Below, piece by piece: positions 7,146-9,327 of a stretch of DNA of 11,073 nucleotides. This stretch comes from a virus (lineage: Monodnaviria; Loebvirae; Hofneiviricota; Faserviricetes; Tubulavirales): the IMG/VR virus record IMGVR_UViG_2675903650_000002, positions 1 to 11,073 of that record; one strand, written 5' to 3'. Position 1 is the stretch's first letter; each line of letters opens with the position of its first letter. A program made the position numbers and the translations under genes. The notes below the pieces were generated by a model that searched no databases, was not told the DNA's origin, and was given only the letters and a program-made list of their open reading frames with translations.

Positions 7146-8417
7146 ATGAAATTTCGTATACTGATATTGATTTCTTTCCTGACATTTATTTTTCCTTTGA
7201 CTTCCTTTTCTGCTGTTAAACAGAAAACGTCGGAGCAGATTTCTTCTCGTGTCGATATGTCAATGGATAACGCGCCACTTCCGCAGGTGATATCGTTAAT
7301 CTGGCAGCGTGTTTTTAACCGCCCGTTTCAGTTGTCGCCGGAACTGGCTGGCGACACGCGGCTTGTGAGTTTTTATCTTACGCAGTCACTGGAACCCCGT
7401 TCATTTTTTATTTCCTACCTTAAAAATATGGGGATAGCGGTTTCATCCAGAAACGGGGTTGACTGGATTTATATTCCGGCTAAAAAGGAATTTAAGGAGC
7501 CTGTCAGCGTGTTTACGTATCGCCCGAAATACCGCAGTGTCAGCTATCTCAGTTCCATGCTGACCTCTGTCACGCAATCAGGTTCTTTCTCAAATCATGT
7601 ACAGACCGTAGATTATTCTGGCGCTTCTGCATCCGCAGCTTCTTCCGGTTCAGCAATAAACAGTGTTTCGGCTGCCACGGATGCGGAAGTCCTTGTATAC
7701 AGTGGAACGGCGGCAGATATTCGCCGTGTTCGTGACATACTGCCACGGATAGATATCCCGGCTGAGCAGGTGACTGTCAGCGGTTACGTTCTGGAGGTGC
7801 AGACCACTGAACGGAACGCCAGCGGATTACAGATTATCGCTGATCTGTTTAAAAATCGTCTTGGCGTTTCGCTGGGTGCTCGTCTTGATGATGGTAATGC
7901 GTTCACTCTGAATGTGGGGGGGCTGAATGCGTTTTACAGTCTGATCAAAACGGATTCGCGGTTTAATATTGTGAGTAATCCCAGGCTGACGGTGCTTTCC
8001 GGCAGTCAGTCGCAGTTTACGGTGGGTCAGGAAGTGCCTGTTCTGGACAGCGTCACTTATCAGGGCAACAGCGGAACGCCGGTTCAGTCGGTTACGTACA
8101 GAAACAGCGGGGCAATTTTTACAGTGACGCCGGTTGTTCTCGACGGTGTGATCACACTCGATATCAGTCAGCAACTGAGTGATTTTGTAAAGACAACCAC
8201 GGGTGTTAACACCAGTCCGACACTGACAAAACGTGAAATCAGCACACGGGTTGATGTGCATGATGGTGATGTTCTGGTTCTTGGCGGACTGGCCAGCAGT
8301 AAGACGACAAAGGCGCGCAGTGGATTTTCGTTTCTGCCGGGATTTACAGGCAGCTCTGAGGACAGCGACAAGACGGATATTATCGTTGTTTTGCAGGCTG
8401 ACCGTGTATCGCGCTGA
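7146..8417 (+). CDS. pIV-like secretin (phage export channel)
   Basis: 423 aa with N-terminal signal peptide ([23 protein letters not shown]) and a C-terminal secretin domain ([23 protein letters not shown] ... [14 protein letters not shown]). Start overlaps the pI stop (taataATG). Confidence 0.85.
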
Positions 8418-8432
8418 ACCGGATGACCGGTT
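8417..8432 (+). other. Short hairpin (aaccgg-atga-ccggtt) at the pIV stop, at the composition break; possible terminator or junction/target motif
   Basis: 6-bp inverted repeat overlapping the pIV stop codon, followed by tatcttt. Marks the switch from T-rich phage DNA to a GC-rich block. Confidence 0.3.
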
Positions 8433-8602
8433 ATCTTTATGTCCGCCAGGACATGGAAGGCCGCGCGCAGTGGTTTCATGTGACGCAGTTACTGAACGGC
8501 CGGAGCCAGGGAGAGCGTGTATATTCCGCGGGACAGCGCAACGCGCCTCCTGCAAAGCCGGGTTTTCATGGCACCCGTCGAGATGAACGACGCAAGGCGT
8601 GA
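8423..8602 (+). CDS. Short GC-rich ORF (59 aa from ATG 8423; 49 aa from ATG 8453); possible remnant 3' end of a disrupted host gene or small phage protein
   Basis: Frame opens immediately after the pIV stop. Codon usage (ggc, cgc, gcg, cag, ctg) is unlike the phage genes. No RBS found and no recognisable motif. Confidence 0.2.
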
Positions 8603-9327
8603 GTCGTCCATGCTATGATGTGGCATGTTGATGATTTTTCTGTGACCCCAACACGCCGGGAGGGAGTAGGACGGAGGAACGCCAGCCGCACCCGCCCGCA
8701 GGTACGAGGACGGGAGCGCCTGCCGTGACGACGGACGACGGCTCACAATGATAATGATTCACCGTCTGCTGTTATGCGCTGATTAGAAAATAACCGTGAA
8801 GCGGTTCTGGGTTCTGTAACACCCGAACTCTGGTACAAGATCCTGCACTTTTGCTCTTCCCATTTTTCAAATTTAGTCATTAAAACCCATACTTTTATTG
8901 GTTTTTTATTGTTTTTGTCTTCATTAGGGATATTTTGTAGTGGTTGATATTGCTGTATTAAATCATGATTAATCGTTACGGAAAGAATGTCAGTATGATA
9001 GCCGGCAAAGATATTCCACTGCGCGGATGATGACACATCTCACTGCCGTTTCAGAACCGGTAACAGATTATTAATTTGTCTGGTATAACGTTCAGTGAAT
9101 AGGTGTTGTCCTTTCTTGCTTAAATGAACACCGGATTGTACAGGTATCATTGCTGATATATACAGTTTCCTGAGATCTGGAACTGATATTCCAGCGCCAG
9201 GAATATGGAGAATACTTCAGGTGAAAAAGACACATCTGAATATCGTTAAATAACGGGTTCATGGCGAATTAAATAAACCTGATAAAGACAGTATGGTGAA
9301 AGCTCGGAATAAAGAAATAGTCAGGTA

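Follow-up and report, generated by a model that had tools for sequence, protein, structure and literature searches.

In the Ff phages the gene IV terminator is followed by a packaging hairpin and then by the minus-strand origin, and f1 miniphages retain intergenic cis elements. In host-dependent lagging-strand origins, the hallmarks are a long imperfect hairpin in non-coding DNA, co-orientation with the initiator gene and independence of the Rep family. Recombinases of the IS110 type are already known in filamentous phages, namely Neisseria Nf1, found at dRS3 with a CT motif, and Acinetobacter Af1. The locus described here is contained in an 11,073-nucleotide stretch of DNA (IMG/VR record IMGVR_UViG_2675903650_000002, positions 1 to 11,073; hereafter, the window), which by its Pfam gene content is an integrated filamentous phage (inovirus). 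Downstream of its secretin gene (pIV) lies a GC-rich block, 8417-8760, in which a preliminary description of the sequence had seen a candidate right junction of the prophage or, alternatively, a structured RNA or the intergenic region for origin and packaging. The block was divided into modules by aligning it to viral contigs, plasmids and genomes of E. coli, and the comparative evidence favours the second of these proposals: the block is probably the non-coding intergenic region of the integrated inovirus, with two conserved cis modules, segments A and B, that would serve packaging and the origin of the complementary strand.

More than 15 related inovirus loci have segment A downstream of their last gene, with 69-82% nucleotide identity, and its homology in these relatives always stops at the same base, 8633/8634; the same segment follows the last open reading frame (ORF) of a satellite found in E. 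coli 700481. The consensus structure derived from a 12-sequence alignment (A2) consists of eight helices and 41 pairs, with 95.7% of the cells paired, while slid controls reached 24-46%. Compensatory changes occur at five pairs, and the cells changed on both sides are 16, vs 6.6 ± 2 in shuffles (0/500). Examples are the first hairpin, which reads ATGTCC...GGACAT or ATGCCGC...GCGGCAT, and the pair of arms GGCCG/CGGCC, found also as GGCGG/CCGCC. The window copy retains all the helices. Folding of the alignment on the reverse strand gave a similar picture and, because the energies of the two strands are similar, the strand of action is not decidable by this approach. A scan of genome contigs with an 18-base motif of segment A returned 50 matches in unrelated GC-rich taxa, consistent with chance.

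The block, segment A included, is non-coding, because its homologs display frameshifting indels and in-frame stops. A short ORF at 8423-8602, previously regarded as host-like, does exist (59 amino acids), but it is neither host-like nor conserved: in 6 of the 12 homologs the frame is closed by a stop after 9 codons, in others it is shifted by 1-nucleotide (nt) indels, so that a small coding gene at this position was ruled out. Similarly, the hairpin cgtcg-agatgaa-cgacg is present, at 8576-8592, but it is not a conserved feature, since relatives have TATCG, CAGCG or TAGCG at its 5' arm, which is thus peculiar to the window; the conserved helix in its vicinity is the one at 8582-8605.

Segment B is centred on an imperfect hairpin, HP1 (ACG.CAG.CGC.CCCG-CC-CG, loop CAGGTA, CG-GG-CGGG.GCG.CTG.CGT), with conserved C.C, C.C and A.A mismatches. 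HP1 has 17 invariant pairs and one compensatory pair, C-G to T-A, in the viral contig L029; in this contig the mismatches are paired and a different sequence lengthens the stem to 19 perfect pairs, and in S21EC yet another one lengthens it. The core, of about 65 nt, is near-invariant in phages, in the satellite and in small rolling-circle plasmids, and the window copy equals the consensus except at two loop positions. The plasmids are 2.0-2.8-kb replicons of E. coli and E. albertii, typed as non-mobilizable (L020, L034, L035, L021, L036), and they encode different initiators: Rep_1 (E = 1e-88) in pLAO81 and in a FDAARGOS plasmid, a REP_ORF2-G2P-type Rep in pJNE21-009_3, and RepL in pE200086_3 and pEA18_5. 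HP1 is on the same strand as Rep in the Rep_1 plasmids L034 and L035 and in L020, which has a G2P-like Rep, and wherever a replicon has an identifiable rolling-circle initiator gene or phage genes, HP1 runs in the same direction as these. In the PLSDB records of pLAO81 and of the FDAARGOS plasmid the Rep_1 gene is unannotated, because it crosses the record origin. No match to the HP1 core was found in 185,000 species-representative genomes, and the hairpin is therefore narrowly distributed. HP1 is followed by the tandem repeat GACGACGG-ACGACGG, which had been noticed before and is conserved in the homologs, although its position is 8727-8741 and not 8720-8735; a CTG triplet (8766-8768) directly after a second hairpin (HP2) is shared by the phage copies and pLAO81, whereas some of the plasmids lack it. 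The viral contigs L041 and L044 were considered as cases of segment B without segment A; they are truncated prophage contigs and are uninformative.

Taken together, the modules are associated with GPA-type, G2P-type, Rep_1, REP_ORF2-G2P and RepL replicons, and the unrelated initiator families that accompany them are at least three for segment A to five for HP1. The phages whose Rep is closest have neither segment; these are the inovirus of E. coli 2012C-4221 (L017, 86%) and the large phage of 700481 (L037, 58%). Since they are lacking with the closest Reps and present with unrelated ones, the segments are not tied to Rep, and their function would therefore depend on the host or on morphogenesis proteins. 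These findings bear on the proposal that the block holds the Rep-specific plus-strand origin, with a nick site and an enhancer, which agrees with the retention of the block by the satellite and with the organization of Ff, in which one intergenic region holds the plus origin together with the minus origin and the packaging signal. However, a Rep-specific nick site should covary with Rep, and in view of the distribution just described this proposal is very improbable.

Position, conservation, non-coding status, covariation, distribution and junctions are established by the data, and the biochemical functions are inferred. The single-stranded viral (+) DNA would be the substrate on which segments A and B act in cis, one as the morphogenetic (packaging) signal and the other as the complementary (minus)-strand origin, at which host enzymes would prime the single-stranded DNA for conversion to the double-stranded replicative form. 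Several features are those of an inovirus intergenic region, namely the non-coding nature of DNA placed after gene IV, its contiguity in circular and tandem genomes, hairpins with compensatory changes and retention by a satellite, while HP1 has those of the single-strand origin (sso) of rolling-circle replicons, being a non-coding imperfect hairpin of rolling-circle plasmids that is co-oriented with the leading strand. Segment A may tentatively be regarded as the packaging signal, because it adjoins gene IV, travels with the morphogenesis module and is found only in packaged elements (phages and satellite); segment B/HP1 could, again tentatively, represent a host-dependent single-strand origin, because it is common to rolling-circle plasmids with unrelated initiators. 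The reverse assignment, with HP1 as the packaging signal and the small plasmids as natural phagemids, may hold instead, because there is a published case of an inovirus that packages a rolling-circle plasmid, and its authors argue that the plasmid has to gain no more than a short packaging signal (10.1101/2023.11.28.569023). A broader proposal, which we regard as possible but rather doubtful, is that HP1 is a portable single-stranded DNA hairpin recognised by the host or by the virion, spread horizontally among unrelated Escherichia single-strand replicons; these would comprise inoviruses with two Rep types, the satellite, and 2-2.7-kb plasmids with Rep_1, G2P-like or RepL initiators.

Some observations weigh against an intergenic region with packaging and origin modules. 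The block has no sequence similarity to the intergenic regions or origins of Ff, IKe or G4, and a search of 50,697 phage records for similarity of the Ff/IKe kind gave no match except 58 nt shared with an uncharacterised virus, outside the block. The CS-6 loop motif (TAGCGT) of ssoA-type single-strand origins and TAGCGA are both absent from 8417-8960, and BLAST revealed no similarity to the G4 complementary-strand origin (G4 3860-4030); AGTAGGACGG of the window resembles the G4 primer sequence, but it was dismissed as a coincidence, being on the wrong strand, without CTG and without BLAST similarity. As to folding, the region 8410-8950 is no better than shuffles on the + strand (z = -0.58) and is better on the - strand (z = -2.97), a difference due mostly to the mismatches of HP1, which on the + strand are C.C and A.A and on the - strand G.G and T.T; as the energies from the alignment are similar for both strands, the functional strand is chosen on biological grounds, and the 'hairpin-rich' character given to the block in the preliminary description derives its support from the comparative data and not from + strand folding energy. 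Moreover, the HP1 core is near-invariant and its covariation comes essentially from one divergent sequence (L029), HP2 is weak, and the window HP1 is devoid of the outer stem of S21EC and L029. A copy of segment B, a remnant of the same module, is found in the 108-kb plasmid p14EC033c; it was rejected as an independent context, since it lies beside the same NERD helicase (93% identity) that the prophage carries, and it provides no independent evidence.

Finally, DNA covariation cannot separate a single-stranded DNA element from an RNA element. The structures could accordingly act as RNA, as a 3'-untranslated region or processing element of the secretin operon or as a small regulatory RNA on either strand, and the pairing supported by covariation is equally compatible with this; the - strand folds significantly better than shuffles and has a weak promoter-like site (8775-8748) that, in + strand terms, comes just 3' of HP1. 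We consider an RNA role unlikely, as the number of promoter-like sites is at chance level (2 vs 1.9 expected), no + strand promoter-like site was found in the scan, a terminator-like hairpin precedes the block on this strand, and the Rfam 15 covariance scan of the window gave no match in or near the block at E <= 1. Furthermore, the rolling-circle plasmids that share HP1 have unrelated gene sets and the hairpin always points the same way as their initiator, which fits a function on single-stranded DNA at the level of the replicon better than a regulatory RNA of the phage.

The composition of the block is in part as formerly described. Its GC content is 0.599 and its T content 0.18, vs 0.458 and 0.32 for the phage genes at 1083-8417; it is the most GC-rich part of the window, and only 0.6% of all 344-nt intervals are equally GC-rich, all of them overlapping it. 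The abrupt break that had been placed at the secretin stop was not confirmed, since the last 400 nt of the gene already have a GC content of 0.516 and the rise is gradual; the sharper change is the fall to 0.38 GC at about 8760-8800. The hairpin at the stop is present, as had been reported; it is terminator-like and probably ends the transcript of the morphogenesis operon, even if it is specific to the window and not conserved in relatives. The terminator-like scan detected three sites in the region, vs 0.9 ± 0.8 in shuffles. The features of the window are listed in Table 1.

Table 1. Genes, conserved modules and joints of the prophage, in window coordinates.
Feature	Position	Strand	Basis or remark
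IS110-family DEDD recombinase	1-954	+	Pfam
GPA-type rolling-circle Rep	1083-3059	+	Pfam
G5P-like single-stranded DNA-binding protein		+	Pfam
DUF2523 (pVI-like) protein		+	Pfam
Zot/pI	6031-7143	+	Pfam
Secretin/pIV	7146-8417	+	Pfam
Terminator-like hairpin AACCGG-ATGA-CCGGTT, then ATCTTTATGT	8417-8432	+	Terminator-like scan; directly after the secretin (pIV) stop
Segment A, conserved multi-hairpin module, non-coding	8436-8634	+	Alignment to relatives
Segment A helices	8439-8454; 8455-8457 with 8607-8609; 8459-8501; 8536-8546; 8550-8574; 8582-8605; 8613-8633		Alignment A2
Joint between segments A and B	8635-8661	.	27 nt; attP module of relatives deleted or replaced here
Segment B	8662-8766 (homology to 8916)	+	Centred on HP1
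HP1 core, imperfect hairpin	8679-8726	+	Alignment A1; same fold predicted in all homologs
Tandem repeat GACGACGG-ACGACGG; weak hairpin HP2 (8734-8741 with 8759-8766)	8727-8766	+	HP2 62-85% paired
Terminator-like hairpin	8792-8806	-	Relic 3' end of the leftward helix-turn-helix (HTH) regulator gene of relatives
Joint between phage intergenic DNA and NERD-UvrD cargo	8917-8950	.	Mosaic breakpoint
NERD-UvrD helicase	9328-11073	-	Pfam

The joint between the two segments accounts for a further difference between the window phage and its relatives. At this point the latter have about 62 conserved nt and one or two dif-like attP sites for XerCD (AGTGCGCATAATGTATATTATGTTAAAT), for a total of 219-430 bp; 28-bp dif-like sites were found between segments A and B in 10 relatives, and those of the satellite form forked inverted pairs like those of CTX. 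No dif-like site occurs anywhere in the window at up to 8 mismatches, and the 27 nt that replace this region are found identical in p14EC033c. The XerCD attP was deleted at 8634/8635, and both segments were kept although the sequence between them was lost. The rest of the genome agrees with a composite origin: positions 1-3473, with recombinase, Rep and G5P-like protein, match another IS110-type phage at 84-90%, positions 4060-8634, with the morphogenesis genes and segment A, have 64-86% identity to a dif-type phage, positions 8662-8916 match the left end of dif-type phages (80% identity for segment B), and the helicase module extends from 8950 onward. By these matches the phage is a mosaic, with a replication/integration module from an IS110-type phage and a morphogenesis module from a dif-type phage, and a swap of the integration module has occurred inside one phage lineage, with loss of the XerCD attP and gain of the IS110-type recombinase.

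Loss of attP raises the possibility that the block is a decaying relic, which once flanked the lost attP and a lost regulator gene and in which the ORF at 8423-8602 is perhaps the sole functional part. Of the adjacent leftward HTH regulator gene of relatives, only homology to the last ~22 codons is left, running to 8916, and the outer stem of S21EC and L029 is missing from the window HP1. Decay is nonetheless a very unlikely explanation, given that both modules are intact and precisely bounded, with all the helices of segment A and, apart from two loop positions, the consensus core of HP1, that the block is present in every examined contig with an identical recombinase, and that the ORF is broken in most homologs.

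The ends of the prophage were determined by comparison of an empty site in E. coli ATCC 11775 (L018) with three occupied loci (L003, L007, L017); contigs encoding the identical recombinase and helicase were retrieved for the comparison of the flanks. On its two sides the prophage is bordered by ybaV, with 98.7-99.2% identity to the E. coli gene, and by ppiD. With a slash marking the break, the empty ybaV-ppiD site reads ...catactgttttctcCT/tgtttgttaacagtgg..., with ttttctcCT just left of the break; attL is ttttctcCT/agtgtgtttgat (in a longer form, ttttctcCT/agtgtgtttgatctg) and lies 185 bp upstream of the first window position, while attR is ...aacatggttgCT/tgtttgttaacagtgg (in a longer form, ...ttaatcacatttaacatggttgCT/tgtttgttaacagtgg) and lies 154 bp after the last one, where it separates the start codon of the helicase from ppiD. 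The CT core is duplicated at both junctions. On these coordinates the element measures about 11.4 kb, with the GC-rich block about 2.5 kb inside as counted from the right end, and the junction of the excised circle is expected to read ...AACATGGTTGCT/AGTGTGTTTGAT. A divergent inovirus that also carries an IS110-type recombinase, L017, occupies exactly the same site, with the same CT-flanked junctions and a conserved end, AACATAGTTGCT, and is without the helicase.

Thus alignment to a prophage-free genome placed both break points outside the window and none in the block, which contradicts the earlier reading of the block as host DNA or the attR side, a palindromic target of the IS110-family recombinase. 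The latter had some grounds, as the window encodes a DEDD recombinase of this family, the block differs in composition from the phage genes and IS110-family elements are known to target repeats (PMC7058167). However, besides the position of the junctions and their occupation by a divergent IS110-type phage, the block is contiguous with phage DNA in the tandem prophage L001 and in L038, a circular 7,439-bp episomal inovirus in which it directly follows the secretin gene. In addition, the target motif TTTCTCCTTGTTTG (left flank, CT core and right flank) has 0 matches in the window at <=3 mismatches. The probability of a host or target origin for the block is accordingly close to nil.

The 185-nt left end of the element (L003 9816-10000, directly before window position 1) shows about 90% conservation in two otherwise divergent phages and includes guide-like sequences. 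On the 5' side of a loop, GAUUUCUCCU matches the left flank of attB plus CT (9/10), and on the 3' side of the same loop AAACAAG is the reverse complement of CT plus the right flank; further on, CACACUAG is the reverse complement of CT and the element's initial bases, and corresponds to the right side of the donor; for the left side of the donor no guide could be confidently located. These sequences match the ybaV-ppiD site, not the GC-rich block. In published bridge RNAs, the 5' side of the loop pairs with the bottom strand and the 3' side with the top strand, the core being part of every guide (PMC11208160); the guides of the left end fit these rules, and the whole 11.4-kb phage appears to be mobilised like an IS110 element. 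In Rfam scans the left end, like the window, had no matches above chance level, and no family matches this end.

The protein sequence of the recombinase is indexed, in identical form, in 648 blocks of a public assembly collection, and all the examined contigs that encode it share the same prophage layout, GC-rich block included. The exact prophage was not found in any complete RefSeq E. coli genome of the collection, where only the divergent L017 variant was present at the same site; the recurrence of the identical recombinase points to clonal spread, possibly of Shigella or of one particular E. coli clone. One copy (L008, CP091394.1), identical in the rest of the genome, has an insertion of about 1.95 kb with a 5-bp duplication at the equivalent of 8292-8296, in the 3' end of the secretin gene, which is shortened to 407 amino acids; this is presumably an insertion sequence that inactivates the phage.

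To the right of the block, 8916 is the last position with homology to phage L001, and from 8950 onward the homology is to a helicase island of E. coli E70, which is free of the phage. The interval was considered as a possible prophage junction and rejected, since attR was found beyond the helicase, which is thus inside the prophage. A 97-amino acid ORF annotated by gene callers on the - strand (8743-9036) crosses this joint and is thus a chimera of phage intergenic and cargo-module DNA, and it has no Pfam or PADLOC match. Another - strand ORF, of 56 amino acids (9092-9262), looks like the broken remnant of a hypothetical gene of 101 amino acids that lies beside the helicase in E70. The helicase matches the PADLOC candidate defence family C3a187 'NERD+UvrD' (E = 3e-136) and is a candidate defence cargo of a filamentous phage; a copy with 82% identity is found in an island of E70 associated with a type VI secretion system.

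The satellite of E. coli 700481 has a G2P Rep, a single-stranded DNA-binding protein (SSB) and two small ORFs and is without morphogenesis genes, and it keeps segment A, attP and segment B. It is part of an array at dif (L037/L113, NZ_CM129038.1 622000-648050), made of two tandem full inoviruses followed by two tandem satellites; each satellite, of about 3.5 kb, encodes the G2P Rep, the SSB, an 87-amino acid ORF and an HTH_38 ORF, and has double dif attP hairpins with a CTX-like fork. The array is an E. coli counterpart of the CTX/RS1 arrangement of Vibrio. The full-length phage that is co-resident with the satellite (L113) contains neither segment A nor segment B, so that the pair does not discriminate which of the modules matches the helper.

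These results correct a mis-assigned prophage boundary, giving an element of about 11.4 kb that carries a candidate defence helicase and ends next to ppiD, and define two conserved cis modules for widespread and uncharacterised filamentous prophages of E. coli/Shigella and their satellites. The modules would be obvious parts for phagemid building, for the detection of satellites and for the annotation of inovirus intergenic regions. HP1 is a candidate for a new type of enterobacterial single-strand origin or for a packaging signal of 'non-mobilizable' plasmids; if the second were true, the cryptic plasmids would be natural phagemids hitch-hiking in filamentous virions, and plasmids now scored as non-mobilizable would have a route of transfer.

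As regards integration, the element resembles the filamentous phages with IS110 recombinases (Neisseria Nf1/MDAphi at dRS3 and Acinetobacter Af1) and IS110/IS621 in the DEDD recombinase and in the duplicated CT core, and it resembles the bridge-RNA recombination of IS110/IS621 in the conserved left end, whose guide-like matches obey the loop rules; it differs from IS110/IS621 in that a whole 11.4-kb phage with cargo takes the place of the insertion sequence, and its guides are putative. This likeness concerns the termini of this element, not the GC-rich block. With dif-integrating inoviruses of the CTXphi, CUS-1 and Ypf type it shares the morphogenesis module and both segments, which in those phages flank dif-like attP sites, in some cases as CTX-like forked inverted pairs, whereas the window is devoid of such a site and its phage depends for integration, at another locus, on an IS110-family recombinase. 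Shewanella phage Dolos with pDolos, and Vibrio RS1/TLC, provide a parallel for a short phage cis sequence shared by small rolling-circle plasmids and a gene-poor satellite; unlike for pDolos, packaging of the E. coli plasmids is only putative, and the shared element could equally be a replication signal. Among the single-strand origins of rolling-circle plasmids (sso) and the G4-type and phiX-type initiation signals of E. coli plasmids and phages (ssi), which differ in CS-6, in the G4 origin (annotated primer template ggacggcgaaagccgccgtccctactg) and in the CTG after HP2 that not all plasmids have, HP1 finds its likeness in being a long imperfect hairpin in non-coding DNA, co-oriented with the initiator and independent of the Rep family. 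The Ff (f1/M13/fd) intergenic region has no detectable sequence similarity to the block, which is GC-rich instead of AT-rich, has relatives with a XerCD attP between the modules, and is not next to the Rep gene because cargo and the integration junction intervene; still, the two have the same arrangement, directly after the secretin gene IV, with non-coding DNA in which a terminator-like hairpin is followed by conserved imperfect hairpins, and the block is retained by a miniature satellite without morphogenesis genes, as the corresponding region is in f1 miniphages, and would act, as in Ff, in a strand-specific manner on the viral single-stranded DNA.

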